From an uncultured Planctomycetia bacterium (GTDB taxonomy: Bacteria > Omnitrophota > Gorgyraeia > Duberdicusellales > 4484-171), in NCBI GenBank assembly GCA_964483625.1, contig CAZABB010000001.1, forward strand, positions 3,222-67,221: a stretch of DNA of 64,000 nt, read 5' to 3'. Both the position numbers and the translations under genes were made by a program. The stretch's first letter is position 1, and each line of letters opens with the position of its first letter. This document shows, piece after piece, positions 4,309 to 42,228 of this stretch. The notes beneath the pieces are model-generated. The model was not told the DNA's origin, ran no database searches, and was given only the letters and a program-made list of their open reading frames with translations.

Positions 4309-4312
4309 CGTA

Positions 4313-7548: not shown

Positions 7549-8373
7549 CTAGGTAAACGCGGCGCGGCAAAAAGACAGGCTCGCCCTGATATTACGGGCG
7601 ATCTTTTTTTTATTCCCGACGCCTAAAGCCCGAGAACTCATCTCGAGCGTAACGATCCCCGGATAACGATCCCGCTTCAGGCGCTTTAAAAACCGCTCTA
7701 ACGGCAATCGGCCTTCGGTTATCAGGCTGTGTTCTCTTCCGTTATAATTGGAAAGATGAACATGCGCTATGCGTTTCTTCAGGCATTCGTACGCTTCCAG
7801 GAGGTCTATTCCCCATGTGCCTACGTGAGTTGTATCGAACGCCACGTGATCAAACCTTTTGAGCTGATCGAGGTTATTGAACCGATACGGGTTCAGGCGG
7901 ACATCCCCCCAACGCATATCGGGCAGGTTTTCCAGGACGATGGTAACCGGGGTATTATCCTGGAAAGATTTCAATTCGCGCGTTAACCATCGAGCATACC
8001 GCTTCTGCCCACCGAAAGGAAAATGGAGCAATATGTCGGCAAGCATCTCGGTTGTTCCCACCCGTACCAAGCGCAACGGCGGATGAATCACTGTGACGCG
8101 GGCGCCGACCGCCTCGGCAAGGGCGATCGAATGCTTTACCCTTTCAATTTCATCCACGGGACAGCCGGAGATATATCCGTTAAAAGGGCTATGGATGCTC
8201 AGGATAGGAACTCCGTACTCATCCCGAAGACGATTCAAGTAGCCCGCCGAATACGCCGACCGATACCGGTTGGCCAATATTTCCAGACCGTCAAACCCGA
8301 CATTGTGTGCGAGCTCAAACGCATATCTGAGAGGATAAGGATATACTGAACCCGCTGATAAAGCGAACATCAT
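7549..8373 (-). CDS. sugar phosphate isomerase/epimerase (xylose-isomerase-like TIM barrel; IolE/IolI-like)
   Basis: IAHVHLSNYNG metal-site motif, a VIHPP motif and TIM-barrel-like periodicity, as in the AP endonuclease 2 / xylose isomerase-like family. Confidence 0.65.
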   Translation of the reverse strand: MMFALSAGSVYPYPLRYAFELAHNVGFDGLEILANRYRSAYSAGYLNRLRDEYGVPILSIHSPFNGYISGCPVDEIERVKHSIALAEAVGARVTVIHPPLRLVRVGTTEMLADILLHFPFGGQKRYARWLTRELKSFQDNTPVTIVLENLPDMRWGDVRLNPYRFNNLDQLKRFDHVAFDTTHVGTWGIDLLEAYECLKKRIAHVHLSNYNGREHSLITEGRLPLERFLKRLKRDRYPGIVTLEMSSRALGVGNKKKIARNIRASLSFCRAAFT

Positions 8374-8385
8374 ACATCTCTTTAT

Positions 8386-9477
8386 TTATGTATCGATCCG
8401 GCCGGCGACAAAATCGTCAACCATCCGTTTCGCCTGAAAATCAGAATATTGCACCGGGGGACGCTTCATCGCGTACGCCGAAAGAGAAGTTAAAACCCCG
8501 CCTCGCCTCCTGTCCAGAGCCAATTTGCACCCCCGGATCACATCGATAACAACCCCGGCACTGTTGGGAGAATCTTCCACCGAAAGTTTCACATCGAGTT
8601 CTATCGGCAGCCCCCCGAATCCCCGTCCTTTCAGAGTGATGAAACAAACTTTGTTGTCTTTTAACCAAGATACATAGTCGGTAGGACTTATATGGACATC
8701 TTCTTCCGCGAACGGACTGTCCGATTGCGATTTTACTGATTCGGCTTTTGATATCTTCTTCAGCTTGAGCCTTTTAAAATCGAGCATATTAAGAAAATCG
8801 GTATTCCCTCCGACATTCAGCTGATATGTGCTGTCAACCTTTACGCCTCTTTCGCTGAATAACTTCACTAATGTTCTATGGAGTACCGTCGCGCCTAACT
8901 GAGATTTGATATCATCACCCACCAGAGGAAGGTTCTTATCTTTAAATTTCTCCGCCCATTGCGAATCGGAAGCTATAAAAACGGGGATATTGTTCACAAA
9001 GGCGGTATGAGAATCCAGACAGCATTGCGCATAGAATTTCGTCGCTTGCTCGGCACCAACGGGGAGATAATTCAACAGCATATCGGCTTTACTTTCCTTT
9101 AAAAGCGCAACGATATCACAGGACGGCGCGGCCGAAATCAAGAACGTTTTTTCCGAAGGGTAGTTCTTCATCTGGTCGTTCACTCCATCCCCGACGACAC
9201 CCATATTCACTTTTACGCCGCGGGCGGGTATATCGTTCTGAAAGATGGTACCGCAGTTTGGTCTTTCAAAGATGGCACGCGCGATATCTTTTCCCACTTT
9301 TCGTTCATCGACATCAATCGCGGCGACCACTTCTATATCTTCCGGGGTATATCCGCCCATACTGTAGGACGTCAGCCCCATATCGCTGTTCCTCCTGTTT
9401 CTATAGTATTCTATTCCCTGAAGCAAACTGCTGGCACAATTGCCGACACCGACAATGGCAATCTTTATCCTGCTCAT
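8386..9477 (-). CDS. ino1: myo-inositol-1-phosphate (inositol-3-phosphate) synthase
   Basis: KIAIVGVGNCASSL Rossmann motif plus blocks conserved in bacterial/archaeal MIPS (VNNIPVFIASD..., LVGDDIKSQLGAT, QLNVGGNTDFLN, SPNSAGVVIDVIRGCKLALDR). The start is trimmed to MSRIKIAIVG at 9477; the longest ORF extends to 9513. Confidence 0.8.
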   Translation of the reverse strand: MSRIKIAIVGVGNCASSLLQGIEYYRNRRNSDMGLTSYSMGGYTPEDIEVVAAIDVDERKVGKDIARAIFERPNCGTIFQNDIPARGVKVNMGVVGDGVNDQMKNYPSEKTFLISAAPSCDIVALLKESKADMLLNYLPVGAEQATKFYAQCCLDSHTAFVNNIPVFIASDSQWAEKFKDKNLPLVGDDIKSQLGATVLHRTLVKLFSERGVKVDSTYQLNVGGNTDFLNMLDFKRLKLKKISKAESVKSQSDSPFAEEDVHISPTDYVSWLKDNKVCFITLKGRGFGGLPIELDVKLSVEDSPNSAGVVIDVIRGCKLALDRRRGGVLTSLSAYAMKRPPVQYSDFQAKRMVDDFVAGRIDT

Positions 9478-10220
9478 CCGGCTTCCTCTTTCTTCCGGCT
9501 GTCTTTTACGCATACAAACAGAAAATTACGGGCGAACAGCGCGGGAAGAATTTTGTACAGTCCGGAATAATATATCCCTTCCCCTATTATTCTCAATTTT
9601 TTCCAGGGTTCCTCGCTTATCCGTTGCGGAAAATAATACTTCCGGGAAATACAGACCAGACCGGTTTTCTCAACCAGCTTCTCCAGGACATTCCGGGAAA
9701 AGACACGGATATGTTCCGAAAACAATGCATCCCGCTTGTGATATACGTCCGTTATATCTTTAAATGCCCCGCAGAGAAAATAAAACCTGTTCACTATATT
9801 CAGCATATTGGGAACCGAGATGACCAGAATGCCGTTGTCTTTCACAACCCGTCTACACTCGCCCAGGAGGGATTCCGGATCAAGCGCATGTTCCAATACA
9901 TCCATAATTAAAATAGCATCGAAAGACTTGTCGGTAAAGGGGATTCCCCCGTCAATATCGCCCAAAACAACTTTAACACCTTTGGCCGAAGCCTCCTTGA
10001 GCGCTTTCTCGCACATATCAAGGCCTATGACCGTATGGGCGGCGGTTAAATCTTCGCTCATACTGCCGCGGCCGCACCCCATATCCAGGATAAGAAAATT
10101 ATTCCGCTGTATTTTCTTTTTCACTAACTCTCGTCTCCATTTCTCATAAGGCCCCAGTGCCGTTTCCTGCCAAACTGCGAGACGATGCCAGTAATCTGTG
10201 GAATATTTTTTTATATCCAT
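9474..10220 (-). CDS. class I SAM-dependent methyltransferase
   Basis: Motif I LDMGCGRGSMSE and motif II/III region (VLGDID...ILIMDVLEH). Confidence 0.8.
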   Translation of the reverse strand: MDIKKYSTDYWHRLAVWQETALGPYEKWRRELVKKKIQRNNFLILDMGCGRGSMSEDLTAAHTVIGLDMCEKALKEASAKGVKVVLGDIDGGIPFTDKSFDAILIMDVLEHALDPESLLGECRRVVKDNGILVISVPNMLNIVNRFYFLCGAFKDITDVYHKRDALFSEHIRVFSRNVLEKLVEKTGLVCISRKYYFPQRISEEPWKKLRIIGEGIYYSGLYKILPALFARNFLFVCVKDSRKKEEAG

Positions 10221-12834: not shown

Positions 12835-13854
12835 TTAAACCGGGGGTTTATCTTGCTCGACCTCCCATATATAGGGGTTTTTCTCCCGTATGTAGAAGTC
12901 GCATAAGCCCATTATTCTTGCATACGCCTCAAGAATCACGGCACCCGCCATCCAGAAAAAATAATTGAAGCCGCCTTCCAAATTGCGCACAACCAGGCTG
13001 AAAATGCGCAGATTGCTCAGGCTGGAAACGGCATACCCCGCTGTTTTTTTCAAATGAAGATGCCCGGTATAAACTCTCCTCCTCTGAGCAAGATAGGCCT
13101 TTACGGTACGAGGCCCCCTGTTGTAAACAACCGCTTCAGGAACGTAACATAAACGATACCCTTTCCGTACAACCAATGCCTCGATCGCCGCCTCATCGAC
13201 CGCCGTGTCGCCCGGTATTCTCGTTACCACCGCCTTTCTAAAAGCAACCAGCTCTCCCAATTTGGGATATTTTAACGCTAATTTATGATGCAGCAACCAC
13301 AGCCGATGCACGGCAAATCCCAGGAAATTCTCGGGAGTATCCCGGGGAACGGAACGGCCGCCGACCATTCCTGTATCGGGGATCGTAAAGGGCTTGAGAA
13401 GATTCTTAATCGTGTCTTTACACGGCACGGTGTCGCCGCTCTCTAGAATACAGATATCCGCAGAGGTCTGTTGGAGAAAATAATTTACCGCCGAGGCTTT
13501 TCCCAACCGTTCTTTTTGAACGAAAAGCCGTATTCGTCTATCGCGTTCTTTAAATCTCTTTACAACGTCTTCGGTATTGTCGGTACATCCGCTGGCTATA
13601 ACCACTATTTCATGAATAGTAAAACATCCCGGTTCCTGAGCGATTAATCCCTCTAATAACCGACTAATGTTGGCCTGCTCATTATAAACGGGTATCCCGA
13701 TACTGCAGGTAAGAATCCTTGTTTCCGTATGCGTAGCATCCATGGGCGAAACGAAACAAATCATTGTTAAAAGAAATTCTCCCTCCCTATGAAATATACG
13801 TATTATCTCATAAAAATTACTCAATATGAAGCGTTTCATCGGAATACCAAACAC
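12835..13854 (-). CDS. GT2 family glycosyltransferase
   Basis: IGIPVYNEQANISRLL...VVIASGCTDNTEDVV...ILESGDTV, GT-A fold motifs. The start is possibly the internal Met at ~13743. Confidence 0.8.
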   Translation of the reverse strand: MFGIPMKRFILSNFYEIIRIFHREGEFLLTMICFVSPMDATHTETRILTCSIGIPVYNEQANISRLLEGLIAQEPGCFTIHEIVVIASGCTDNTEDVVKRFKERDRRIRLFVQKERLGKASAVNYFLQQTSADICILESGDTVPCKDTIKNLLKPFTIPDTGMVGGRSVPRDTPENFLGFAVHRLWLLHHKLALKYPKLGELVAFRKAVVTRIPGDTAVDEAAIEALVVRKGYRLCYVPEAVVYNRGPRTVKAYLAQRRRVYTGHLHLKKTAGYAVSSLSNLRIFSLVVRNLEGGFNYFFWMAGAVILEAYARIMGLCDFYIREKNPYIWEVEQDKPPV

Positions 13855-14061
13855 CGAAACAAAAGGCCGGTCTCCCTCCGCATGAGGCTTTCCACAAATA
13901 TTCTTTTTAAAATAATTCTTTTCCTTTTTGAATCTTTTCCGACAGGGATATGTTTTATCTTTACTTGTCTCTCACATTTTGGCATAATTACTTTTACGCA
14001 TAGGAAAAGTTTTTCCCTTATCCGACAGACACCTGCCTCACTCCTGAGGCTTACGGAAAGA
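13855..14061. promoter_or_regulatory. AT-rich divergent intergenic region between oppositely oriented operons (probable divergent promoters)
   Basis: A 207-bp non-coding gap between the minus-strand GT2 gene and the plus-strand B12-rSAM gene. A GGAAAG Shine-Dalgarno-like element lies 7 nt before the ATG at 14062. No specific -35/-10 elements are called. Confidence 0.25.
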
Positions 14062-15429
14062 ATGAATATAAAAGTAGCGTTGATTAATCCGACAATCAAA
14101 GAACTTCAAGCAAGCGAAGTACCCTTGCACTTGGGGTATATCGCGGGACACCTGGAACAAAACGGTATCGAAGTAATAATCATAGACCAGGCGGCCGGGG
14201 ATGATGTGGAGAGAGAAATCGATTCTTATCGTCCCGACATAATCGGCATCAGCAGTATGTCGGCCATGATAGGCGAAGCCTATAGAATAGCGGACATGTG
14301 CCGTAACAGAGGAATCCTCACCGTCATGGGAGGAGAACATGCCAGCGCGTTGCCGGAAGAAGCACAGGAACACGCCGATGTAGTTGTGGCAGGGGAAGGA
14401 GAGATAGCTATGCTGGATATCGTCAGAAAAAAAATCACATCCGGCATCATATCCGGTCCCCAGCTGGAAGATATAGACGATCTGCCGTTATATCCCTGGC
14501 ATCTTATCAACCAGACATACTATCTCAATTTATCAAACGAAACGAAACTGGCCACCCTTGCTTTTCTCGGCTCCCGTCTCTCTTCGGCCAAAACGAGTTC
14601 ATTTCTTACCAGCCGGGGATGTCCCTTTCACTGTACCTTCTGCCATAACAGTCTGAGACAGGTTCATTTCAGATTCCATAGCGCCGAGAGGATAGTAGAA
14701 GAGATGAAACGCCTCAGGGTAGATTACGGCGTTGAAGCCATAGCGTTTTTAGACGAGAATTTTCTGTTGAATAAGACAAGGCTTGAGAAAATTTGCCGTA
14801 CCATACGAAAAGAAAAGCTCAGTGTCCTATGGAGCTGTGCCAGTTCGGCTCATTTCGTCGACGCACAATCTGTCCGGATGATCCGGGATGCCGGATGCCG
14901 GCAGGTATCCTTCGGCGTAGAAAGCGGCTCGCAAAGAATTTTGGACATTCTGAATAAGTCCGTTACGGTAGAACAAAATAAAAAGGCAATCAAAATCTGC
15001 CGGGAAGCCGGATTGATCGTGCACGGTTCATTCATGCTGGGAAATCCCACGGAGACCGTCGAAGATGTAAAATTAACCCAAAAGTTCATTCTCGAGACCG
15101 ACATCGAAAGCTACCGTATCAATATCACCACGCCCTATCCCGGCACGAAACTCTGGGAACTCTACCACGAACAAATTCCCCGGCCTATTGACTGGCATCG
15201 TTTCGAAGCAAGCACCAATATCGAGACATACCCCTATACCCCATTCAGCAGGGAAGAACTCAAACGCCTGTTCTTTGAAACTTCGCTGATAAAGCCGGCG
15301 ATATATAAACGGGACTGGAAAATGGCGCTGCGTTATCCAAAAGAAACGATTTCCTGGGGTATCCGGCATCCGTTGACAGCAACGAGAATTATCGCAGGGA
15401 AATATAATATGAGAAGCATGCAAGACTGA
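14062..15429 (+). CDS. cobalamin-binding (class B) radical SAM enzyme
   Basis: MNIKVALINP..B12-binding Rossmann region, SRGCPFHCTFC. The start is placed at the ATG after the GGAAAG SD. The in-frame upstream ORF from 13789 is probably not translated. Confidence 0.85.
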   Translation: MNIKVALINPTIKELQASEVPLHLGYIAGHLEQNGIEVIIIDQAAGDDVEREIDSYRPDIIGISSMSAMIGEAYRIADMCRNRGILTVMGGEHASALPEEAQEHADVVVAGEGEIAMLDIVRKKITSGIISGPQLEDIDDLPLYPWHLINQTYYLNLSNETKLATLAFLGSRLSSAKTSSFLTSRGCPFHCTFCHNSLRQVHFRFHSAERIVEEMKRLRVDYGVEAIAFLDENFLLNKTRLEKICRTIRKEKLSVLWSCASSAHFVDAQSVRMIRDAGCRQVSFGVESGSQRILDILNKSVTVEQNKKAIKICREAGLIVHGSFMLGNPTETVEDVKLTQKFILETDIESYRINITTPYPGTKLWELYHEQIPRPIDWHRFEASTNIETYPYTPFSREELKRLFFETSLIKPAIYKRDWKMALRYPKETISWGIRHPLTATRIIAGKYNMRSMQD

Positions 15430-15481
15430 AACTGTATTTCAAATAGTCGTTATATATAGAAGGAAAAATTTACCGTACATC

Positions 15482-17230
15482 ATGACTGTAAAAGTAGCAT
15501 TGATATCCATCATCACCGGGAAATATTTTTTCGAAAGCGTAGGAAAACTCAGAAGCCTTGCCCCCCGGCAGCTGAAACTCTACGCGCTCGGCGACGAATA
15601 CATCCGGCGCAACGTCACCATAGAAATAAAAGACTTTATCTCCGAAGACCTCTTTTACAGCGATAAAATATATTATCACGCCTTATGGAACATCACCCGT
15701 CAGATATATGAAATGAAGCCCGATATCGTGGGTTTTTCCTGTTATTTATGGAATATCCGCCACATCCTTTCCCTGACCCGGAATCTGAAAAATATACTGC
15801 CCGGTGTCACGACCATACTGGGCGGCCCGGAAGTCTCTTCACAACCATTTTCCCGGGAGATTATGGAAAAAAACGACGGCATAGATATTATCGTCCGGGG
15901 AGAAGGAGAACAAACGTTCCGCGAACTTGTCTTATCCTGTCTCAACCACACTCCGAAAGATACGATCCCCGGCCTTACCCTGCGCAAAGAAAACGAAATT
16001 CTCGTAACTCCCGACCGAACCGACCGCGTCGACATCAACCATATCCCTTCGGTTTATGAAACAGAAATAACTCAAAGCTATTGTCCGGGAGAGATCGCCC
16101 AGCTGGAAACCGTACGGGGATGCCCCTACCGCTGCCATTTCTGCCTCTGGCCGGGAAAATCAAGCAGTATGCTTACCCGATCCCGGATAGAACACGAATT
16201 GCGCCTGATCAAAAAAGCCGGCTTTCAGGAAGTATATATTTTTGATTCGATTCTGGGATACGCAAGGCAGAGGACGAAAGAAATCCTTCAGCTCCTTTTG
16301 GATATGCAACTTGGGATGCGTTACACATTCTATCTTGACTTGAATTATATCGACGAAGATAGCATCCTGCTCTTAAAAAAAGGGAAGGATACTTTGCATC
16401 TCGCTCCCCTCGGCGTCCAGACTCTGCATGAAGAAGCTCTCAAAATAAATAATATATTTTTCAACAGACACACATTTGAAAAAACACTAAGCATGCTCAA
16501 CGCAAACAAGATCCCCTACAGTGCCAATCTCATTATGGGACTTCCCGGAGATACCCACGCAACGTTCAAACAGTCTTTCAATACACTGTACGGCCTGACC
16601 TGCGATATACACATCCGGCCCCTCTTGGTCAATCCGGGCACACATCTTTTCGAACACGCATCACAATATAAAATCAAACATGTAGGAATGGACGAATGCC
16701 ACAGAGAACTTTCCAATAAATCATACAGCTATGAAGATATGAATAGAACGGTACGCTTTATGATCGGATACCTCGTATTGAAGTACGGCTATGAAACGGC
16801 ACGGCCGTTAAGGGAATGGGTTCTTCTCCTGGACCGTTCTCTACGTTTTGCTTCGCGTCATTTTGAAATCAGCCCGGCAGATCTTATCGATTCTTTCGGT
16901 GAATATCTGGAAAAAGAAATGCCGGTATACTTTTCTCCTACTACCGACAGAATGAATATGTATTCTGTTTCACGTCTTCACCTCCCGCTTTTTATCCGGT
17001 TTTTTCGCACCCTGCCGCGGCGGGGCGGCCGGATACTGCATCGTATTATTCTGTATATTTTTCTCGCGACAGAATATATCACGTGGCGATACAACATCCA
17101 TCTGAGGAACATAATTTACTTCTATCCAAAACTGCAGTGGTATTCGCTCAAAATGAAGGTTGCCGGCAGGTTGGCATCGTATAGGCGTATTTTCCTAGGG
17201 AACAACGACGTGTCGATGAGGGAAAAATGA
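15482..17230 (+). CDS. cobalamin-binding (class B) radical SAM enzyme, tandem paralog A
   Basis: VRGCPYRCHFC motif and N-terminal B12-like domain. Residues ~24-250 are identical to those of the next gene. Confidence 0.85.
   Translation: MTVKVALISIITGKYFFESVGKLRSLAPRQLKLYALGDEYIRRNVTIEIKDFISEDLFYSDKIYYHALWNITRQIYEMKPDIVGFSCYLWNIRHILSLTRNLKNILPGVTTILGGPEVSSQPFSREIMEKNDGIDIIVRGEGEQTFRELVLSCLNHTPKDTIPGLTLRKENEILVTPDRTDRVDINHIPSVYETEITQSYCPGEIAQLETVRGCPYRCHFCLWPGKSSSMLTRSRIEHELRLIKKAGFQEVYIFDSILGYARQRTKEILQLLLDMQLGMRYTFYLDLNYIDEDSILLLKKGKDTLHLAPLGVQTLHEEALKINNIFFNRHTFEKTLSMLNANKIPYSANLIMGLPGDTHATFKQSFNTLYGLTCDIHIRPLLVNPGTHLFEHASQYKIKHVGMDECHRELSNKSYSYEDMNRTVRFMIGYLVLKYGYETARPLREWVLLLDRSLRFASRHFEISPADLIDSFGEYLEKEMPVYFSPTTDRMNMYSVSRLHLPLFIRFFRTLPRRGGRILHRIILYIFLATEYITWRYNIHLRNIIYFYPKLQWYSLKMKVAGRLASYRRIFLGNNDVSMREK
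15548..16233. repeat. 686-bp tract 100% identical to 17287..17972 (copy 1 of a gene-conversion tract inside tandem B12-rSAM paralogs)
   Basis: Direct comparison of the two regions, offset 1739 nt. Six-frame ORFs in all frames are duplicated identically (15742..16038 = 17481..17777, etc.). Confidence 0.9.
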
Positions 17231-18966
17231 ATATATCATTGATATCCATTATTTTCGGAAAAACTTTTTTTGACAGTACGAACTTTCTCAGAAGCCTTGC
17301 CCCCCGGCAGCTGAAACTCTACGCGCTCGGCGACGAATACATCCGGCGCAACGTCACCATAGAAATAAAAGACTTTATCTCCGAAGACCTCTTTTACAGC
17401 GATAAAATATATTATCACGCCTTATGGAACATCACCCGTCAGATATATGAAATGAAGCCCGATATCGTGGGTTTTTCCTGTTATTTATGGAATATCCGCC
17501 ACATCCTTTCCCTGACCCGGAATCTGAAAAATATACTGCCCGGTGTCACGACCATACTGGGCGGCCCGGAAGTCTCTTCACAACCATTTTCCCGGGAGAT
17601 TATGGAAAAAAACGACGGCATAGATATTATCGTCCGGGGAGAAGGAGAACAAACGTTCCGCGAACTTGTCTTATCCTGTCTCAACCACACTCCGAAAGAT
17701 ACGATCCCCGGCCTTACCCTGCGCAAAGAAAACGAAATTCTCGTAACTCCCGACCGAACCGACCGCGTCGACATCAACCATATCCCTTCGGTTTATGAAA
17801 CAGAAATAACTCAAAGCTATTGTCCGGGAGAGATCGCCCAGCTGGAAACCGTACGGGGATGCCCCTACCGCTGCCATTTCTGCCTCTGGCCGGGAAAATC
17901 AAGCAGTATGCTTACCCGATCCCGGATAGAACACGAATTGCGCCTGATCAAAAAAGCCGGCTTTCAGGAAGTGTGTATCTACGATTCGATTCTGGGATAC
18001 ACAAGACAACGGGCGAAGGAGATCATTCAATTGATTTTGGATCTCAAACTGGGGCTTAAGTTTAATTTCTTTCTCGATCTTAACAACATCGACGAATCCA
18101 TTGTAAAACTTGCAAAAAAGCACGAAAACATCCTACGCCCTCTTCCCCTAGGGGTGCAGACGTTACACGACGAATCATTGAAGAATACTAATATTTTCTT
18201 CAACACTGAGCGGTTTGCAAAAGGGATAGAGACTATCGATAAACACCATATGACATATGACGGGATAGACCTGCTTATCGGCCTACCAGGCGACCGCCAG
18301 GCCACCTTTAAACACTCCTTGAATCAACTGTATGCTCTTTCTCCCCGGATACATATCCGGCATCTCTTCGTCAATCCGGGGACTCATTTCTTCGAAAACC
18401 TCGAGAAATACGGGATGGCCCGTTCAGATATCGATCAATGTCACAGGATGCTGTATAATTATTCCTACAGTTACGAAAACGTCCATAAAAGCATACGCCT
18501 TCTCGTGGGATACCTCGTGTTAAAATATGGATACGAACCCGTACTTCCGTTGCGCAAATGGCTGCCGCTTTTGCGCCGCTCATTGTCATTTACCCTGCGG
18601 CATTTTTCGGTAAGCCCCGCCGATCTCTTTGATTTGTTCGGTGAATATCTGGAGAAGGAAATCCCGGCGTATTTTTCTCCCACCACCGACAGGATGAATA
18701 TGTATTCGGCCCCGCGGCTTCATCTTCCGCTTTTTCTCCGGTTCTTTCGCACCCTGCCGCTGCGGCGTAATAGAGGAGTATACCGCGAAATCTTATATCT
18801 TATTACTGCGGCAGAGTACGCCAGATGGAGGTGGAACATCCACCTGAGGAATATGATCTATTTATATCCTCGGCTACAACGCTATTCGTTATTTACAATC
18901 TTTTCCGGAACATGTGCACGATTTTTGAAATTATTCATAAGAAATAGCCGGGCAGATATCCGTTGA
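17227..18966 (+). CDS. cobalamin-binding (class B) radical SAM enzyme, tandem paralog B
   Basis: VRGCPYRCHFC. The start ATG overlaps the stop of paralog A (ATGA), suggesting translational coupling. The C-terminal half is ~55-60% identical to paralog A. Confidence 0.85.
   Translation: MNISLISIIFGKTFFDSTNFLRSLAPRQLKLYALGDEYIRRNVTIEIKDFISEDLFYSDKIYYHALWNITRQIYEMKPDIVGFSCYLWNIRHILSLTRNLKNILPGVTTILGGPEVSSQPFSREIMEKNDGIDIIVRGEGEQTFRELVLSCLNHTPKDTIPGLTLRKENEILVTPDRTDRVDINHIPSVYETEITQSYCPGEIAQLETVRGCPYRCHFCLWPGKSSSMLTRSRIEHELRLIKKAGFQEVCIYDSILGYTRQRAKEIIQLILDLKLGLKFNFFLDLNNIDESIVKLAKKHENILRPLPLGVQTLHDESLKNTNIFFNTERFAKGIETIDKHHMTYDGIDLLIGLPGDRQATFKHSLNQLYALSPRIHIRHLFVNPGTHFFENLEKYGMARSDIDQCHRMLYNYSYSYENVHKSIRLLVGYLVLKYGYEPVLPLRKWLPLLRRSLSFTLRHFSVSPADLFDLFGEYLEKEIPAYFSPTTDRMNMYSAPRLHLPLFLRFFRTLPLRRNRGVYREILYLITAAEYARWRWNIHLRNMIYLYPRLQRYSLFTIFSGTCARFLKLFIRNSRADIR
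17287..17972. repeat. 686-bp tract identical to 15548..16233 (copy 2)
   Basis: As above. Flanking sequence on both sides is clearly diverged. Confidence 0.9.
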
Positions 18967-19022
18967 CCAGAGGACATTCAATCCATGGCGGCGGGATTTT
19001 TCATTCTACCGGAATATCAGAC

Positions 19023-19838
19023 ATGGATTACGCTGTAGAAATAAGTCATTTGACCAAGACCTTTAGACCAAATAAAACATTTTATCGTTTTCTCACTCAT
19101 CCATTTCGTGTCGAAAAACCCATAACCGCTCTTCACGATATCTCACTCCGGATCAAGAAAGGTGAACTACTGACCCTTGTCGGCCCAAATGGCGCGGGAA
19201 AAAGTACGTTGTTAAAAATCCTTTCCTGCCTTATCCTGCCGACCTCGGGAAAAGCCAAAATAGCAGGACACGATGTGGTAAAAAATCCCGGAGAAGTAAA
19301 AATGGCCATAGGTCTGATTTCCGGCGATGAACGAAGTTTCTACTGGCGCCTTACCCTGCGCCAGAATCTTTCTTTCTTTGCCGCCTTATACAACGTCTTC
19401 GGTAATCAAGCAGAAGAAAGGATGAAATATCTTGCGTCTTTTCTCCAATTGACTCCTCACTTGGACCGGCGTTTTCAGGAAACATCCACCGGAATCAGAC
19501 AACGGATGATGATCGCGCGTAGTTTACTCAACAATCCTTCCGTTCTGTTTATGGACGAACCGAATAAAAGTCTGGATATCGCCATAAACAGAGAGCTTTT
19601 CCGGACAATAGAAGAAGAACTGATCAACAAACAGGGGAAAACAATCATCCTGGCCACACATACCCTTTCTGAGATACACACACCTGTGACGAAGATAGCG
19701 ATAATGAAAGAAGGAGAAATAAAAGCATGCGGGACCATCGAAGAGTTAACCCGGTCGTTTAACGTGTCTTCGAAAAATACCGAACATATATATAAAACGG
19801 TGATACAAGATGAATCGTACGGAGACATTCCTACGTAA
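19023..19838 (+). CDS. ABC transporter ATP-binding protein (ABC-2 / Wzt-TagH-like exporter ATPase, no C-terminal carbohydrate-binding domain)
   Basis: Walker A LVGPNGAGKSTLLKIL, signature/Walker B region (..LFMDEPNKSLD). The start is trimmed to MDYAVEISHLTKTF; the longest ORF runs from 18963. Confidence 0.85.
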   Translation: MDYAVEISHLTKTFRPNKTFYRFLTHPFRVEKPITALHDISLRIKKGELLTLVGPNGAGKSTLLKILSCLILPTSGKAKIAGHDVVKNPGEVKMAIGLISGDERSFYWRLTLRQNLSFFAALYNVFGNQAEERMKYLASFLQLTPHLDRRFQETSTGIRQRMMIARSLLNNPSVLFMDEPNKSLDIAINRELFRTIEEELINKQGKTIILATHTLSEIHTPVTKIAIMKEGEIKACGTIEELTRSFNVSSKNTEHIYKTVIQDESYGDIPT

Positions 19839-20634
19839 AGCGTGGGCTTTCATCAAAAAAGATTTTCATATCCAGTCAAGTTACCGTATCTCTTTCCTTT
19901 TCGAATGGTTAGGCATCCTGATCCACGCGGCAACGTTCTATTTTGTGGCAAAGTTGTTCGAACAGAACCTGACGCCTTACCTGAAAGAATACCAGACCGG
20001 ATATTTCCCTTTTGTTCTTATCGGGATAGCCTTTTCCGGATACCTTTCTATTGCCATACGCAGTTTTTCGGGAAATATACGGCGGGAACAAATGATGGGC
20101 ACATTGGAAGCAATGATAACAACCCCCACCCGGCTGCCGATATTGATCGTTTCTCTCTCACTCTGGAACTTCATCTTTACCTCCATCAGCAGTTTTATTT
20201 ATCTGTCCTGCGGCGTACTGTTTTTTGACGTCGATTTAAGCCATATGAACATCGGAGCCACGCTGATTATTCTTCTGCTCACGATCGTCTCATTCAGCTG
20301 TATCGGGATAATTTCCGCTTCGTTTGTGATCGTGCTGAAAAAAGGCGACCCGGTCAGCTGGCTGACGGATACATTCGCTCGATTTTTCGGAGGAGCCCTC
20401 TTTCCCGTAATCATACTCCCGAAGGGATTACGGACGATTTCTTATTTTTTACCGATCACATATTCACTCAAAGCACTGCGCCATTCTCTGCTGCAGGGAT
20501 ATGGATTCAGCATGCTCCGTTTCGAAATCGGGATACTGCTGGCATTCTGTATTATTCTTGGTCCCCTCAGCCTATGGACATTTCGCGGCGCGGTCAGGAA
20601 AGCGAAAAATACGGGAAGCCTGGCCCATTATTGA
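19810..20634 (+). CDS. ABC-2 type transporter permease (Wzm/TagG-like)
   Basis: About 6 TM helices and an N-terminal amphipathic AFIKKDF motif typical of ABC-2 permeases. It overlaps the ATPase gene by 29 nt. Confidence 0.8.
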   Translation: MNRTETFLRKAWAFIKKDFHIQSSYRISFLFEWLGILIHAATFYFVAKLFEQNLTPYLKEYQTGYFPFVLIGIAFSGYLSIAIRSFSGNIRREQMMGTLEAMITTPTRLPILIVSLSLWNFIFTSISSFIYLSCGVLFFDVDLSHMNIGATLIILLLTIVSFSCIGIISASFVIVLKKGDPVSWLTDTFARFFGGALFPVIILPKGLRTISYFLPITYSLKALRHSLLQGYGFSMLRFEIGILLAFCIILGPLSLWTFRGAVRKAKNTGSLAHY

Positions 20635-20679
20635 TATATCCTGCGGCGGCCGGGTATCGCGCATATATCGAGTTGTACA

Positions 20680-21738
20680 ATGTTATTAAGTCGTATTCAC
20701 CGGTATCTACCCAACATCTTCGGGTTCCTCCCCACGAGCATCAAACTCCGCCTTACCTATCGATGCAATCTTACATGTATCATGTGTCCGGTCTGGAAAA
20801 CTCCCGGCTGGAAGCCCGATGCAGATAAAGAGACGACCTTTTCCGAACTCTCGGCAATCGTCAAAGATATTATGGCTTCGTATCAAAAAATTCCCTATCG
20901 CCCCTACGTTTCTCTCTCGGGGGGGGAACCCTTCCTGAGAAGTGATATCATCGAAATCAGTCGTTTCCTCGATGACAGCGATATCCCGGGCTTCTGCATA
21001 AACTCCAACGGAACACAGATAAAAAACGACCAGATCTCGGCTTTACGTAATCTAAGAAAACTTCATATCAACATATCACTCTTAGGCCCGGAACATGTCC
21101 ACGACCGGATAACCGGCAAAAAAGGATCATTCCAGCAAACTCTGACGACAATAAAAAAACTGCGGGAAAACAATTTCAAAGTTACCCTTCAGACAACGAT
21201 CACATCGCTCAATCAAAGCCACCTTCTCGATATATGCAGCATCGCACAAGATCTCCACTGTGCCCTTTGTTATAATTTCGGTCAATTTTCCCGCCTGCAA
21301 GATCATATCCGCCAGAAAGAGATCACAAAAAAAGAATTTTCTGAAGAATTCTTGAATACCAGCTCTGTAGCCCGGACCTTTTTTCATATTAATCCCGACA
21401 TTCTGAAAGAGCAGGTAGCGGCCGTCCGGGAAAAAGCTCTTCGCTCCCGCATTCCCTGCCGCTTCATTCCCGATATCGGTCTCGATGAAATAGAAGATTA
21501 CTACCATGACGCGGCGTATCGCGTCGCAGCCACATGCCCTTATTTTTTTTCCGGGATAACGATTACTCCTTCGGGAGGATTGACACCCTGCGTCCTCCAT
21601 TACGAAATATGCAACGTAAAACACACCGGCTTCGCCGGATCGCTAGGGCATGAACGGTTCAGAAAACTGAGAGCATATATACGGAAGCACGGAATCTTTC
21701 CCGTCTGTCGTCATTGTGGATATCTTACAAAAACATAA
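20680..21738 (+). CDS. radical SAM enzyme with SPASM domain
   Basis: LRLTYRCNLTCIMC and SGGEPFL motifs. C-terminal SPASM region CPYFFSG..PC..C...CRHCGYL. Confidence 0.85.
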   Translation: MLLSRIHRYLPNIFGFLPTSIKLRLTYRCNLTCIMCPVWKTPGWKPDADKETTFSELSAIVKDIMASYQKIPYRPYVSLSGGEPFLRSDIIEISRFLDDSDIPGFCINSNGTQIKNDQISALRNLRKLHINISLLGPEHVHDRITGKKGSFQQTLTTIKKLRENNFKVTLQTTITSLNQSHLLDICSIAQDLHCALCYNFGQFSRLQDHIRQKEITKKEFSEEFLNTSSVARTFFHINPDILKEQVAAVREKALRSRIPCRFIPDIGLDEIEDYYHDAAYRVAATCPYFFSGITITPSGGLTPCVLHYEICNVKHTGFAGSLGHERFRKLRAYIRKHGIFPVCRHCGYLTKT

Positions 21739-21761
21739 CCGTGCGAAAAAGAAGATGCCTT

Positions 21762-23003
21762 ATGAACAAAATGAGTATCGCTATTATTAAATTCAACTAC
21801 CTTCCCTTGAGCGAGACTTTCATCTATGAGGGAATAGCAAGGCTTAAAAAATACCGTCCTGTAATCTTGTGTAAGGTAAAAGAAAATACCGGGGCGTTTG
21901 GATGCGAGACTCTCCATTCTCAATTCTCCTCTCATCCGTTCAGAAAGCTCTGCAACGATTCTCTCAAGGAACGATTTTTCAAAAATACCTGTTTCAACGT
22001 TCTTTTCGGCAACCTTTCTTTTTTTGAAAAATATATCGACCAATACCGTATCCGGCTTCTACACGCCATGTTTCCTCACGAAGGGATTTATACTCTTCCT
22101 TTAAAACGGAAATACGGAATACCGTTGGTCGTATCTTTCCACGGAGGATACTCAAGCTCCGTATCTCCATTTATACATAAGCCATGGTTTGAAAAGCTAT
22201 TCGCTGCCGCAGATCTCTGTACGGTCCCTTCACGCTATACGCAGAACACGCTCGAAAGAGCCGGATGCCCTCCGGAAAAAATACGAATCCATCACTGTGG
22301 AGTAGATATAACAAAAATTCCCTTCAAACCGAGAATATACCGTAATTCAAACGAACCGGTACGCTTTCTTACCGTAGGAAGAATCGTAGAAAAAAAGGGG
22401 CTTGCCGATATAATCGAAGCGTTCTCTCTTTCACACAGAAAACACAGGAATATCCGTCTGGACATTATCGGAGACAGCGCTCCTTACTGCCAGAGAGCAG
22501 GGAAGAATATCCTGAAAAGAATAGGGTTGATTTCGTACGCAGAAGGAAATCCCCTGTATAAAGAAAAAGTAAAAGCAATGGTACAACAGCTAGGTATTGC
22601 TCATGCCGTTCATTTCCACGGAGCCCTGCGGCACCGCGAAGTAATCAAAAAACTCTCGGAGGCGCATATCTTCCTCTTGTCCAGTCACCGTTCCTGCGAT
22701 GGAGATGAAGAATCTCTTCCCGTGGCTCTCCTGGAAGCTCAGGCTAACGGCATGCCGGTTATCGCGACGGATCACGCCGGAATATCCGAGGGTGTGCGGA
22801 GAAATCGGTCGGCGTACCTTGTTGCCGAAAGAAATCCTGCAGAACTCAGCAACAGAATCAATCATTTGATCGAACATCCTTACCTATGGCCGCAGATAGG
22901 AACGGCCGGCCGGGAATATGTTTCGCGAAATTTTCATATAGGCGATTTGACCGAAAAAATAGAAAGCATATATGGCACTCTCATCCAACGATACAATCAT
23001 TGA
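21762..23003 (+). CDS. GT4 (GT-B fold) glycosyltransferase
   Basis: The C-terminal domain motif EAQANGMPVIATDHAGISEGV carries the E-x7-E-like signature of GT4. The start is trimmed to MNKMSIAIIK; the longest ORF runs from 21714. Confidence 0.85.
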   Translation: MNKMSIAIIKFNYLPLSETFIYEGIARLKKYRPVILCKVKENTGAFGCETLHSQFSSHPFRKLCNDSLKERFFKNTCFNVLFGNLSFFEKYIDQYRIRLLHAMFPHEGIYTLPLKRKYGIPLVVSFHGGYSSSVSPFIHKPWFEKLFAAADLCTVPSRYTQNTLERAGCPPEKIRIHHCGVDITKIPFKPRIYRNSNEPVRFLTVGRIVEKKGLADIIEAFSLSHRKHRNIRLDIIGDSAPYCQRAGKNILKRIGLISYAEGNPLYKEKVKAMVQQLGIAHAVHFHGALRHREVIKKLSEAHIFLLSSHRSCDGDEESLPVALLEAQANGMPVIATDHAGISEGVRRNRSAYLVAERNPAELSNRINHLIEHPYLWPQIGTAGREYVSRNFHIGDLTEKIESIYGTLIQRYNH

Positions 23004-23889
23004 AAAAATGATCTCGGTTATTATCCCCACACACAATAGGAAAAACTTGCTCAAACAATGCGTGCGAAGCGTCCTCCGGCAGGACTTCCCTTCCCATGGA
23101 TATGAAATCATCGTAATTGATGACGGTTCCCGGGACGATACGGAAGTTTTTCTTAAAAAAGCCAGCCGGCACATAAAGAATCTTTCTTACCATCGTAATC
23201 CGGTCAATCAAGGGCGGTCTTCGGCCCGAAACAAGGGCATCGACCTGGCACGAGGAGAAATCATTGCTTTCACCGACGATGATTGCGTTCTTCCCCGCGA
23301 GTGGCTGTCCGGCATTATACAAACGTTCCAGCGCCACCCCGATGCCGCAGCCGTGGGAGGCAGTATTATAAACCCGAGCCTGTCGCCGGCAAGCTGGGCG
23401 GAGTACATTTTGATCTTTTCGGCATGGTTTCCCGTCGGCAGGGAACGCTCGGTACGAAACATCCCCACGTGTAACGTCGCCTATCGTAAAATCTGCATAG
23501 AGGGATTGCTGTTTTCCTTAGAAGGAAAGAACTTGAATTATCGTGATACGCTTTTAAATTTTACACTTTCAAAAAAAGGTGGTAGATTAATATTTAACCC
23601 CCGTCTGCCTGTGTACCACTATCGCTGGCATGCGACTTATTCCTTCAACGATTTTCTTGAAACCCAGCGCAAACAGGCCCGCGGATTTATCTGGGAAGGG
23701 TATGAATTCCACGGAAGAGCGGGGAAACTGTTGATACGGTTTCGTTTCCTTAATTTTTTATATCCGGCCTTAATCTTTGCCTTGGTGAGATGTTTGCGTC
23801 GTAAAAAGTATACCTTAATGTTTTTTAAGACCTGTATTCTTATGCTCAAAGGTGAACAGGAAAAGGCCAGAATAATATCGTCATGGTAG
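22972..23889 (+). CDS. GT2 family glycosyltransferase
   Basis: ISVIIPTHNRKNLL..EIIVIDDGSRDDTE..FTDDDC. An alternative start at 23008 (MISVIIP) would remove the overlap with the upstream gene. Confidence 0.85.
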   Translation: MALSSNDTIIEKMISVIIPTHNRKNLLKQCVRSVLRQDFPSHGYEIIVIDDGSRDDTEVFLKKASRHIKNLSYHRNPVNQGRSSARNKGIDLARGEIIAFTDDDCVLPREWLSGIIQTFQRHPDAAAVGGSIINPSLSPASWAEYILIFSAWFPVGRERSVRNIPTCNVAYRKICIEGLLFSLEGKNLNYRDTLLNFTLSKKGGRLIFNPRLPVYHYRWHATYSFNDFLETQRKQARGFIWEGYEFHGRAGKLLIRFRFLNFLYPALIFALVRCLRRKKYTLMFFKTCILMLKGEQEKARIISSW

Positions 23890-24797
23890 CGCAAGGTAAA
23901 AATACCGTCCGGGTTTCAATCATTATTCCCCTGTTCAATGGCGAAAACACCATTGAAGAATGTATGTCTTCTCTACGTTCCTTACAGTATCCGCATCCGT
24001 ACGAAATCATCATTATAGATAATAATTCCAGCGACAGGTCGGTGGAGAAAATCAAACCGTATGTGAATGGACATACCGTCCGGCTATATTCGGAAAGAAA
24101 ACAGGGATCCTATGCGGCGCGCAACAAAGGCATCCGGCTGGCTCGCGGCGCATTCATCGCTTTTACCGACGCCGATTGCATTGTGCAAAAAGACTGGCTC
24201 ACCAATATCACCAAAAGACTGGAAGAACATACGGTAGGAGGGGTGGGAGGAAAAATCGTACCATACCGGCCCGAAACGGACCTGGAACGGTTTGGTGACA
24301 AGTACATATTCAACGAAGAAAAGAAACCATTTCCTTACCTCGGTACCGGAAACTGCGTTTTTCGCAAAGATGTCCTGTGGGAACTGCACTTATTTGACGA
24401 ACGATTTCTCTCGGGAGGCGACGTCGATCTCAGTTTAAGGATTCAGAAACAGGGGTATCGATTATTGTATCAGCCCGACGCGGTAATTTGCCATAAACAC
24501 CGGACATCCCTGAAAGCCTTTTTCTGTCAATATTATACGTACGGTAAAGGGTGGAAGATATTGAGAGGGAAATGGGGAACTCAGAGCTCATTATTTCGTA
24601 ATGTCCACGGATATCGCAAAGGCATGTATGCGCTCTATCATGTCTTACATTTTTTACTGTTATATCCCTATCTTCACCTGAGGCGAAAAAAGGTTACGTG
24701 GGAAGATAGAATGAATGTATTTTCCCAACTTTACCTGGCGATACAGGATGGAGCATTTTTTCTGGGATACACGTATATTCCCGTATCCCGTCCGTAA
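23883..24797 (+). CDS. GT2 family glycosyltransferase
   Basis: VSIIIPLFNGENTI..EIIIIDNNSSDRS..FTDADC. Confidence 0.85.
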   Translation: MVAQGKNTVRVSIIIPLFNGENTIEECMSSLRSLQYPHPYEIIIIDNNSSDRSVEKIKPYVNGHTVRLYSERKQGSYAARNKGIRLARGAFIAFTDADCIVQKDWLTNITKRLEEHTVGGVGGKIVPYRPETDLERFGDKYIFNEEKKPFPYLGTGNCVFRKDVLWELHLFDERFLSGGDVDLSLRIQKQGYRLLYQPDAVICHKHRTSLKAFFCQYYTYGKGWKILRGKWGTQSSLFRNVHGYRKGMYALYHVLHFLLLYPYLHLRRKKVTWEDRMNVFSQLYLAIQDGAFFLGYTYIPVSRP

Positions 24798-24804
24798 AAC
24801 CCTG

Positions 24805-25914
24805 ATGATGAAGAACTATCGCCACATGATCCAGCGCATAAAAATCATCGGAGGAATTCTCAATTCACGCATTCCCTTTACCGGACCGATGGCCTGCATG
24901 ATCGCTCTTACCGATGCGTGTAATATCCAATGTTCTTTCTGTCCGGTCCATTCAAGTTTTCTGACCGAAGAGCGAAAGAATAAGTTTAGGGATTCATTTG
25001 GCCTGGAGGAATTAAAATCACTCCTGCGTCAGTTAAGAGATCTTCACGTATGTAAATTATTTTTTGCCGGGCGGGGAGAACCGTTTTCCTATCCTTACAT
25101 AAGAGAAACTCTGGATTATTGTCGGCATCTGGGCTTAGAGACCAATTTTACTACCAATGGGACATTGATTGACTCTTCTCTAATGCAGGATCTTATTCGG
25201 CTGGGAGTAAAAGAATTGAATGTGAGCATATGCGCAGGGAGTCCGGAACATTATGTACGGGTCCATCCTCATACCAGCGAAGAAACATTCTTGCGCATAA
25301 AAGGATGGCTGCATGACAGCCTAAGGTTCAAACGACGCCCCCGCATCGTCATTACGAATATTATATGCAACAAGAATAGCGATGATATCGAGAACATGGT
25401 TCGACTTGCCAAAGAAGCAAGGGCCCAGGAAGTACGGTTTGAACCGGTTCAGCTATTCGACTACATCAAAGAAGACCTGCGATTATCGCCGCCGCAAAAG
25501 TCAACCCTTTTAGCATCATCACCGCGCATTTCCACCCTTCTGAGAACATACCGGTTAAAAAGCAACTTCTCCGACATGTTAAAAAGACTAACCCATGACG
25601 TGCGGGGAGAAGGAAGATACAATTATCTGGCGGGAAAAATATCGTGTTACCAGGGATGGTTAACGTGTGGGATATTAGCATCGGGAGACGTCATATTTTG
25701 CTGTGAATCAACCCGCCACATCATCGGAAACATCTACCGGTCTCCCTTTAAGGAAATATGGTTCTCAGCCGAATATAACACATTGCGACACAAAGCGCTC
25801 ACTCAGGGCTGCATCTATCCGGACAAACGGCAAACAAGCTGTTTTTACGCACTACAAAATTTAATGCTGCACAGATGTCTCCGCGTGCCGGAAGCCGTAC
25901 GAAAAAATGTTTGA
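24805..25914 (+). CDS. radical SAM enzyme with SPASM domain
   Basis: ALTDACNIQCSFC and GRGEPF motifs. C-terminal region CYQGWLTCG...CC..GNIYRSPFKEIW...C..C. The start is trimmed to the MMKNYRHM Met pair; the longest ORF runs from 24715. Confidence 0.85.
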   Translation: MMKNYRHMIQRIKIIGGILNSRIPFTGPMACMIALTDACNIQCSFCPVHSSFLTEERKNKFRDSFGLEELKSLLRQLRDLHVCKLFFAGRGEPFSYPYIRETLDYCRHLGLETNFTTNGTLIDSSLMQDLIRLGVKELNVSICAGSPEHYVRVHPHTSEETFLRIKGWLHDSLRFKRRPRIVITNIICNKNSDDIENMVRLAKEARAQEVRFEPVQLFDYIKEDLRLSPPQKSTLLASSPRISTLLRTYRLKSNFSDMLKRLTHDVRGEGRYNYLAGKISCYQGWLTCGILASGDVIFCCESTRHIIGNIYRSPFKEIWFSAEYNTLRHKALTQGCIYPDKRQTSCFYALQNLMLHRCLRVPEAVRKNV

Positions 25915-40289: not shown

Positions 40290-40304
40290 CGGGGTTTGAG
40301 GATT

Positions 40305-42164: not shown

Positions 42165-42228
42165 CTCGTGAATTATTATATGGGAAAAAGGTCTGATTGC
42201 AAGAAGAAATTAGAAGTGGGAAGAGAAA

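Follow-up and report, generated by a model that had tools for sequence, protein, structure and literature searches.

Two structurally characterised radical S-adenosylmethionine (SAM) enzymes that depend on cobalamin, TokK and CysS, methylate one carbon repeatedly, and the papers describing them have described several residues linked to this chemistry. In both enzymes a Trp lies beneath the cobalt, in the loop after Rossmann strand 3 (W76 in TokK, W75 in CysS). TokK has another active-site Trp, W215, two residues past the last cluster cysteine, whose replacement strongly slows methylation; according to the TokK paper, both Trp are conserved only in TokK, ThnK and CysS among the characterised methylases. 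In CysS, which puts SAM to two uses, Trp271 governs the change from one to the other, and the neighbouring Leu-Ser hydrogen-bond the substrate. ThnK and TokK are 79% identical and yet carry out two versus three methylations. Here, we compare with these enzymes three consecutive genes, genes 1 to 3, found in a 64-kb stretch of DNA (hereafter the window, meaning all 64,000 nucleotides analysed) from an uncultured bacterium assigned to Omnitrophota. We hold with high confidence that the three genes encode class-B-type radical SAM enzymes of a glycan-related locus. Our comparison suggests that genes 2 and 3 are most likely methylcobalamin-dependent C-methyltransferases acting like CysS and TokK.

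The three genes and the likeness of genes 2 and 3 to CysS and TokK

Gene 1 (14062-15429) encodes a 455-aa radical SAM protein with a B12-binding-type domain, gene 2 (15482-17230) a 582-aa CysS/TokK-like B12-binding radical SAM protein and gene 3 (17227-18966) a 579-aa tandem paralog of gene 2. A preliminary description of this DNA had reported three class-B radical SAM genes lying head-to-tail on the plus strand, immediately upstream of an ABC-2 exporter and with the stop of the second overlapping the ATG of the third, and all of this agrees with what we find. Each protein matches the B12-binding domain PF02310 (74, 60.7 and 60.8 bits for genes 1, 2 and 3; Pfam gathering cut-off 32.1) and the Radical_SAM domain PF04055 (98.8, 43.4 and 35.4 bits; cut-off 29.5). 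Each also carries a single CxxxCxxC motif, at residue 187 in gene 1 (C187/C191/C194), 214 in gene 2 (C214/C218/C221) and 212 in gene 3 (C212/C216/C219), and these cysteines are invariant across all three homolog alignments. In the AlphaFold2 (AF2) models of genes 1 and 2, the N-terminal domain shows alternating beta/alpha elements. Direct reading of the plus strand places the ATGA overlap at 17227-17230, with a Shine-Dalgarno-like element, GAGGGA, 5 nt upstream of it. Such 4-nt start/stop overlaps are a very common arrangement in bacterial operons. The ATPase and permease genes of the exporter follow in the same direction.

The start of gene 1 deserves a comment. A longer open reading frame (ORF) begins at 13789, and the public record calls a 546-aa protein. 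However, gene-1 homologs of 450-457 aa, and 73 counted over the range of 431-488 aa, open with the same 'KVALINP' as the protein read from 14062, and the ORF from 13789 would overlap the divergent GT2 glycosyltransferase gene (12835-13854, minus strand); 14062 is therefore the better start.

When the sequence of gene 2 was searched against the Protein Data Bank (PDB), the best matches were TokK (2.9e-26) and CysS (7.5e-23). The fold comparison pointed to the same two proteins, since Foldseek matched the AF2 model of gene 2 to CysS with an E value of 2.5e-29 and a template modelling (TM) score of 0.73 over 568 columns and to TokK with a TM score of 0.66, with TsrM (TM 0.51), AprD4 and OxsB ranking behind them. 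The model has a mean predicted local distance difference test (pLDDT) value of 82. The match to CysS and TokK covers the whole-protein fold including the C-terminal domain, a region modelled with low pLDDT (below 70 for much of residues 440-582). As in CysS, TokK and ThnK, genes 2 and 3 combine a Rossmann cobalamin domain, a radical SAM barrel and a helical C-terminal domain. Moreover, they carry both the Trp of an SCYxWN motif and the Trp two residues after CxxxCxxC that are found in CysS and TokK. In gene 2, W90 of the sequence FSCYLWN aligns to TokK W76 (LSCYVWN) and CysS W75 (ISCYVWN), and W223 (C221-L-W223) aligns to TokK W215 (C213-D-W215) and CysS W206. The first of these residues is present in 54 of the 79 aligned homologs and the second in five, genes 2 and 3 included.

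Beyond this likeness, the two genes form an isolated lineage. A word-indexed search of 5.8 billion proteins returned nothing more than 35% identical to gene 2 besides its paralog, and an exhaustive HMMER search of 1.84 billion cluster representatives nothing more than 37% identical besides the paralog. Nearly all the HMMER matches stop at or before about residue 435-480, so that for the last ~150 residues this search detected no relative except the paralog. The distant homologs at 29-35% identity are mostly DUF4080-type Bacillota proteins, with some from Omnitrophota and Planctomycetales. The gene 2/3 lineage can be described as an orphan branch nearest the iterative methylases. Seven of the distant relatives (P0362, P0365, P0379, P0387, P0395, P0482 and P0502) are 1000-2279 aa long and match gene 2 in two to four separate stretches, as if each polypeptide joined several B12-type radical SAM modules.

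Several observations count against a CysS/TokK-like role of genes 2 and 3. Both proteins are only ~20% identical to CysS and TokK, and they miss the cut-off of the KedN5 family NF033712 (700 bits) with 154 bits for gene 2 and 146.7 for gene 3. The gate of CysS, W271-L272-S273, has Y284-L285-D286 of gene 2 and, in gene 3, F282-L283-D284 as its aligned counterparts, so that the gate Trp271 is replaced by Tyr and Phe, respectively. CysS and TokK act on pantetheinylated small molecules, not on glycans, and in the Pfam and NCBIfam scans of ORFs of at least 150 aa, from which the gene content of the window was read, we found no carrier-protein gene and no polyketide synthase, nonribosomal peptide synthetase or beta-lactam gene. 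Also, the CysS and TokK genes belong to actinomycete and myxobacterial antibiotic clusters, whereas genes 2 and 3 lie among glycosyltransferases and an ABC-2 exporter, a context without a characterised counterpart. The distant homologs of gene 2 lie in unrelated gene contexts, and a transfer of function by synteny was considered and rejected for genes 2 and 3 on this ground and on that of the 29-37% identity of the nearest homologs. Finally, the 64-kb window contains no cobalamin riboswitch over threshold and no recognisable cobalamin gene.

The His-on motif DxHxxG is absent from all three proteins, a loss that the preliminary description would have taken as proof that they do not bind cobalamin. 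This criterion is invalid because OxsB, TsrM and TokK bind cobalamin without the motif, in a base-off/His-off manner, with an Asn (via a water network), an Arg or a Trp beneath the cobalt, and we therefore rejected DxHxxG as a test of cobalamin binding. Genes 2 and 3 are predicted to bind cobalamin and to take part in methyl transfer. In the scheme that we propose for genes 2 and 3, two molecules of SAM would be used per turnover, as has been established for TokK and CysS. The first SAM would methylate cob(I)alamin, and the [4Fe-4S] cluster would cleave the second, which yields a 5'-deoxyadenosyl radical. This radical would abstract a hydrogen from an unactivated carbon of the substrate, and the resulting substrate radical would capture the methyl group from methylcobalamin.

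Mosaic paralogy of genes 2 and 3

The trio had been described as three distinct enzymes, which has to be corrected: genes 2 and 3 are paralogs, and from residue 23 to residue 251 their identity is 100%. Their overall identity is 74%, very unevenly spread. An exact block of 686 nt, which encodes residues 23-251 of gene 2, occupies 15548-16233 and is repeated base for base at 17287-17972 in gene 3, both copies being on the plus strand. The first 22 codons, before the block, show 50% protein identity between the two genes. In the diverged half of gene 2 that follows it (residues 252-582; 16234-17227, plus strand), identity to gene 3 is 57% at the amino acid level and 62% at the nucleotide level, and the proportion of synonymous differences (pS) reaches 0.76, which means saturation. 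Identity at third codon positions is 100% within the block and 42% outside. An exact repeat of 686 nt in genes that are otherwise ~62% identical is far beyond chance (log10 P about -142). The ratio of the proportions of nonsynonymous and synonymous differences (pN/pS) is 0.35 in the barrel part (252-435) and likewise in the C-terminal part (436-582); both copies are therefore under purifying selection. Both ORFs are intact and remain in frame across the sharp block boundaries.

The limits of the block can be read on the AF2 model of gene 2. The block takes in the Rossmann-type domain, the loop that binds the cluster and, from the radical SAM barrel, the first strand and helix; the diverged part spans barrel strands beta2-beta6 and the helical C-terminal domain. 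The triad equivalent to the CysS gate sits just outside the 686-nt block, which agrees with a pair of enzymes that handle their cofactors alike and their substrates differently. In our scheme, the two enzymes would have in common an identical cofactor module, made of the Rossmann domain and the cluster loop, and would differ in the barrel strands and C-terminal domain, that is, in the parts that line the pocket in CysS. Because these parts have diverged, genes 2 and 3 may target different positions or different residues, or may differ in how many successive methylations they carry out, for which ThnK and TokK are the precedent.

How did two genes come to be identical in one half and saturated with differences in the other? 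The sequence comparison identifies genes 2 and 3 as old paralogs, adjacent because of a tandem duplication, whose N-terminal modules have been equalised by a very recent event. The pattern indicates gene conversion between the tandem copies as the simplest cause of the identical block, an assembly artefact appearing less likely.

Gene 1 and its relatives

Gene 1 is 21-22% identical to genes 2 and 3 and belongs to a widespread family, with 2186 homologs, the best of them 73% identical and several, from Candidatus Omnitrophica, ~60%. The best PDB fold match of its AF2 model (pLDDT 90) is AprD4 (PDB 6FD2; TM 0.73, 21% identity), followed by OxsB, MgmA (methyl-coenzyme M reductase glutamine methylase) and TsrM. 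AprD4 is also the best PDB sequence match (1.4e-22), over the radical SAM domain only. This protein is the radical SAM 1,2-diol dehydratase of the apramycin pathway, where its substrate is paromamine, an aminoglycoside intermediate; it has about the length of gene 1 (~455 aa) and, as just said, a sugar substrate. To our knowledge, AprD4 makes no use of cobalamin, and it illustrates that the domain can be present without the cofactor. Gene 1 differs from it in its strong PF02310 match. The score of gene 1 against the AprD4 family NF033070 (98.7 bits) does not reach the cut-off of 500, and the same is true of its top NCBIfam matches, namely HpnJ (TIGR03471; 143.2 bits, cut-off 577.6), BchE (TIGR02026; 129.8 bits, cut-off 481.35) and PhpK. 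The hopanoid enzymes HpnJ, HpnP and HpnR and the BchE protein are thus known systems to which gene 1 is linked only through the HpnJ and BchE scores, far under their cut-offs, and we found no hopanoid or bacteriochlorophyll genes in the 64-kb window. An alignment to named enzymes had been suggested as a way to sub-classify the trio; the family models of BchE, TsrM (tryptophan 2-C-methyltransferase) and PhpK were scored, and no model reached its cut-off.

Given the low identity to genes 2 and 3 and the closeness to AprD4, neither methylation nor the use of cobalamin can be assumed for gene 1. The earlier suggestion of methylation, possibly iterative, is a reasonable reading for genes 2 and 3, with their CysS/TokK best matches and both Trp kept, and cannot be taken for granted for gene 1. 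To all appearances gene 1 is a separate enzyme, whose radical chemistry may be methylation, dehydration or rearrangement, on the same sugar or on a precursor sugar.

The neighbourhoods of gene-1 relatives provide a further view of this family. On the Candidatus Omnitrophica contig JAQTNB010000063.1, three gene-1 paralogs (60% identical) surround a 708-aa fusion of GT2, radical SAM and SPASM domains (2853-4979, Pfam-confirmed), so that glycosyl transfer and radical SAM chemistry are linked here within one fused gene. On three other contigs, gene-1 relatives lie beside sugar nucleotidyltransferases, dehydratases/epimerases of nucleoside diphosphate (NDP) sugars, GT4 and GT2 glycosyltransferases and radical SAM/SPASM genes, together with one to four further B12-type radical SAM genes each; two of the three also have a Wzx-type flippase and a DegT-type aminotransferase. 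Glycan loci rich in B12-type radical SAM genes are, in this respect, a recurrent feature of Omnitrophota. On one of these three contigs (L089, 11370-12383), a DUF4430 gene is found directly downstream of the gene-1 relative, and after it comes the gene of a DUF6580 membrane protein. Transcobalamins, too, have DUF4430 as their C-terminal domain, and the two proteins may be a pair for cobalamin capture or uptake, which we take as a lead for cobalamin handling and not as proof. PDB sequence searches of the DUF4430 and DUF6580 proteins of L089 gave nothing informative, and there is no DUF4430 or DUF6580 homolog in the window.

It could be argued that one or more of the three enzymes do not methylate at all and instead catalyse a dehydration, ring contraction, cyclisation or epimerisation, gene 1 possibly without cobalamin. 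The structure closest to gene 1 is indeed that of a diol dehydratase not known to use cobalamin, which goes against a methylating trio, and its best matches comprise AprD4, HpnJ and BchE, which are non-methylases, and OxsB. Besides, no family cut-off is reached by any of the three proteins, and reviews name several class-B members with non-methylating roles. We nevertheless consider this reading unlikely, as the proteins closest to genes 2 and 3 by both sequence and fold are methylases and the two Trp of the methylase group are kept; methylases are, according to a 2026 review, by far the most studied and best represented group of the superfamily; and the DUF4430 gene directly following a gene-1 relative hints at cobalamin handling.

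The surrounding locus and its predicted product

What might the trio act on? The glycan context is supported by 12 glycosyltransferases, carbamoyltransferases, deacetylases, a WbuX-like enzyme, an inositol-3-phosphate synthase and the ABC-2 exporter. We propose, with confidence evenly divided, that the trio performs a cytoplasmic radical tailoring, probably C-methylation, of a glycan before its ABC-2 export. The substrate would be a glycan and the steps would run in the following order. GT2 and GT4 enzymes would assemble a sugar chain on the cytoplasmic side of the membrane, where the soluble radical SAM enzymes would tailor it. This step is placed in the cytoplasm because it is the only place for soluble Fe-S enzymes to act and because neither gene 2 nor gene 3 encodes a transmembrane segment. 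The finished or near-finished product would then leave through the ABC-2 exporter of the DrrAB/NodIJ type, whose genes lie directly downstream, and the GT-C enzymes encoded elsewhere in the locus may add sugars outside the membrane. An ATPase and a permease directly downstream of gene 3 recall Wzm/Wzt, NodIJ and DrrAB export, and for enzymes that need an Fe-S cluster it is fitting that the product be completed in the cytoplasm and exported afterwards. The likeness has its limits, as no family-level assignment was obtained and the ATPase of the window lacks a carbohydrate-binding extension. GenK, GenD1, Fom3 and MoeK5, which we compared by description only, offer precedents for cobalamin-dependent radical C-methylation on sugar or nucleotide-activated substrates (2026 review), and the pairing of B12-type radical SAM genes with nucleotidyltransferases is seen in the loci related to gene 1. 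They differ in acting on small antibiotic intermediates, and none of them is known from a polysaccharide/ABC-2 exporter locus.

The proposal has to be set against the following points. In the window we found no sugar nucleotidyltransferase, Wzx/Wzy or priming transferase. The neighbours of the trio are not orthologous to those in the related loci, with no match at E<1e-20 and a resemblance at the family level only, the exception being weak matches to the SPASM gene at 4313-5359. The 2026 review of B12-dependent radical SAM enzymes names no polysaccharide or glycan substrate, and in our searches of the literature we came upon no characterised example of such an enzyme at work in polysaccharide biosynthesis.

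The trio stands at the head of a co-directional block of 11 genes (14062-26680) in which the gaps are small or the genes overlap. The first gene after it, on the plus strand like the rest of the block, encodes a DrrA/NodI-like ABC transporter ATPase (18963 or 19023-19838; ABC_tran 98.1 bits, DrrA subfamily 202 against a cut-off of 312), whose likely start is the ATG at 19023 and not the TTG at 18963 that overlaps the stop of gene 3. The ABC-2 type permease adjoins it (19810-20634; ABC2_membrane 51.2 bits, no NCBIfam match), and the two, both over their Pfam cut-offs, constitute the ABC-2 exporter. Next come a radical SAM/SPASM protein identified by Pfam and under every NCBIfam cut-off (20680-21738), a GT4 glycosyltransferase (21714-23003; Glycos_transf_1 110 bits, with EpsE and WcaL best and below cut-off) and two GT2 glycosyltransferases (22972-23889, 123 bits; 23883-24797, 114 bits, the latter scoring best against MftF with 162 versus 280). 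A second radical SAM/SPASM protein (24715-25914; Pfam) and a polysaccharide deacetylase of the NodB/PgaB type (25907-26680; Polysacc_deac_1 79 bits) close the block. PDB searches with the two SPASM enzymes gave only weak, uninformative matches to SkfB, the archaeal tetraether lipid synthase and an unnamed radical SAM protein. On the other side of gene 1, a gap of 207 nt (13855-14061) separates it from the divergent GT2 gene, recognised by Pfam, and is presumed to be a divergent promoter region; a pattern scan for promoters and terminators did no better than chance.

In the whole window there are 15 radical SAM genes among about 48 genes, a density clearly beyond chance. Six are of the B12 type, namely the trio and the genes at 2812-4308, 50345-51745 and 52808-54208; eight of the other nine have a SPASM domain, and a 150-aa ORF at 163-615 is a SPASM-only fragment. 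With the exception of genes 2 and 3, these radical SAM genes are mutually 20-32% identical, and the set is therefore one of distinct enzymes with no recent amplification. The 12 glycosyltransferases comprise seven GT2, two GT4 and three membrane GT-C (PMT_2) enzymes that are ArnT-like. There are, in addition, three NodU-like carbamoyltransferases, two polysaccharide deacetylases, a sugar amidotransferase resembling WbuX (175 bits, cut-off 203), an inositol-3-phosphate synthase (8386-9513; 411 bits to the mycothiol INO1 model, cut-off 638), a SAM methyltransferase, a GH5-like hydrolase and several GDSL and TPR proteins. The glycan-building, radical SAM-rich locus spans at least 55 kb, and the trio is a small part of it.

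Other features of the window were recorded. The housekeeping genes for SAICAR synthetase, GTP-dependent phosphoenolpyruvate carboxykinase (PEPCK) and tRNA-Leu interrupt the locus at ~39402-42312, and the locus may therefore be two adjacent clusters. The homologs of this PEPCK are 85%, then 66% and then ~60% identical and are spread over Omnitrophota, Margulisiibacteriota and others. Only the relatives of gene 1, at 60%, point to Omnitrophota, and these comparisons tentatively make the source a probably Omnitrophota-like anaerobe. A perfect tandem duplication of 124 nt lies at 42298-42421 and 42422-42545, with a third, partial copy from 42546. Each unit opens with 16 nt of the 5' end of the tRNA-Leu(GAG) gene (42229-42312, minus strand), and the duplication may have arisen as an artefact of assembly or may represent a duplicated leader of the tRNA or an attachment-like site. 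A second radical SAM trio, on the minus strand, consists of B12-type (50345-51745), SPASM (51750-52895) and B12-type (52808-54208) genes. It is flanked by inverted carbamoyltransferase paralogs (48678-50342, plus strand; 54126-55880, minus strand) with 76-77% complementarity between their DNA arms. At 55890-58121, on the minus strand, a 743-aa ORF that matches nothing in Pfam has a carbamoyltransferase gene on one side and the gene of a 1105-aa TPR protein on the other. At 7549-10220, on the minus strand, the inositol-3-phosphate synthase gene adjoins those of a xylose-isomerase-like TIM-barrel protein and the SAM methyltransferase, an arrangement suggestive of a building block, derived from inositol and possibly methylated, within this locus.

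The inositol-3-phosphate synthase also bears on the nature of the product, which could be, instead of a glycan of the envelope, a small secreted pseudo-oligosaccharide, cyclitol or Nod-factor-like natural product, with a sugar- or inositol-derived core tailored by the radical SAM enzymes and exported by the DrrAB/NodIJ-type pump. The structural closeness of gene 1 to AprD4, an enzyme that acts on paromamine, would fit such a product, as would the three NodU-type O-carbamoyltransferases, the NodB-type deacetylases, weak NodC-like matches of GT2 enzymes, the NodI/DrrA-like ATPase, the SAM methyltransferase and the lack of Wzx/Wzy or a priming transferase in the window. We regard it as doubtful all the same. 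The three ArnT-like GT-C enzymes, the seven GT2, the O-antigen-type amidotransferase resembling WbuX and the envelope-type TPR and GDSL proteins suit an envelope glycan better, the Nod-type scores are far under their cut-offs (NodC, for example, 48 versus 550 bits), no aminotransferase or 2-deoxy-scyllo-inosose synthase is found in the window, and the related loci contain Wzx flippases.

The identical block of genes 2 and 3 could in turn have been created during assembly or polishing, in which case the real genome would contain two ordinarily diverged paralogs or one intact gene. The sequence is that of a metagenome-derived contig of 137 kb, and the repeat is without a second witness because genes 2 and 3 are recorded only in the NCBI assembly and are absent from the independent Logan short-read assembly; gene 1 and PEPCK, by contrast, are present in the Logan assembly too. 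The window also holds a second exact tandem repeat, the 124-nt duplication at 42298-42545. However, a genuine repeat of 686 nt would itself cause the loss of these genes from a short-read assembly, and the intact, in-frame ORFs with sharp boundaries and the purifying selection on the diverged halves speak against an artefact. Assemblers generally collapse or break repeats and are not known to write the sequence of one paralog into another. We judge an artefact improbable, and gene conversion between the tandem copies remains the simplest cause; an artefact would alter the story of the paralogs, not the identity of the enzymes.

Maturation by the trio of a ribosomally synthesised and post-translationally modified peptide (RiPP), with the SPASM proteins as peptide maturases and the ABC-2 system as exporter, was rejected as highly improbable: SPASM proteins are typical of peptide maturation and several have weak NCBIfam matches to such maturases, the bottromycin and polytheonamide class-B methyltransferases BotRMT1-3 and PoyB/C show several B12-dependent radical SAM enzymes acting on one peptide (2026 review) and the GT2 enzymes score best against the mycofactocin glycosyltransferase MftF, but there is no room for a precursor near the trio, where the sole gap (13855-14061) has no separate ORF, the window yielded neither a precursor ORF nor any protease, YcaO, lanthipeptide or RiPP-recognition element, the 12 glycosyltransferases and the sugar-modifying enzymes dominate the locus, and the related loci are plainly sugar-nucleotide/polysaccharide loci.

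Returning to the tailoring of a glycan before export, we tentatively extend this proposal into a wider picture, which is possible and at present rather unlikely in all its parts. About 15 radical SAM enzymes, six of them of the B12 type, would modify a glycan that is exported or displayed at the cell surface. Within this set, genes 2 and 3 would add C-methyl branches or, by repeated methylation, longer alkyl branches to sugar carbons. Gene conversion would keep the cofactor module identical while the substrate modules diversify, as a form of concerted evolution. For poly- and oligosaccharides, it would be the first case of C-alkylation by cobalamin-dependent radical chemistry.

The cobalamin-dependent radical SAM enzymes characterised until now all have antibiotics, cofactors, lipids or peptides as substrates, and the 2026 review includes no polysaccharide among their substrates. 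Several B12-type radical SAM genes, glycosyltransferases and exporters recur together in uncultured anaerobes. By their domains and scores, genes 1 to 3 are best described as new, unassigned members of a known superfamily. If their role in glycan tailoring is true, C-branched or otherwise radically modified sugars would join the repertoire of bacterial surface chemistry, and this would help to explain the abundance of radical SAM genes in such genomes. The gene 2/3 pair, with identical cofactor halves and diverged substrate halves, constitutes a natural experiment that could be used to map the residues setting regioselectivity or methylation count in CysS/TokK-type enzymes.

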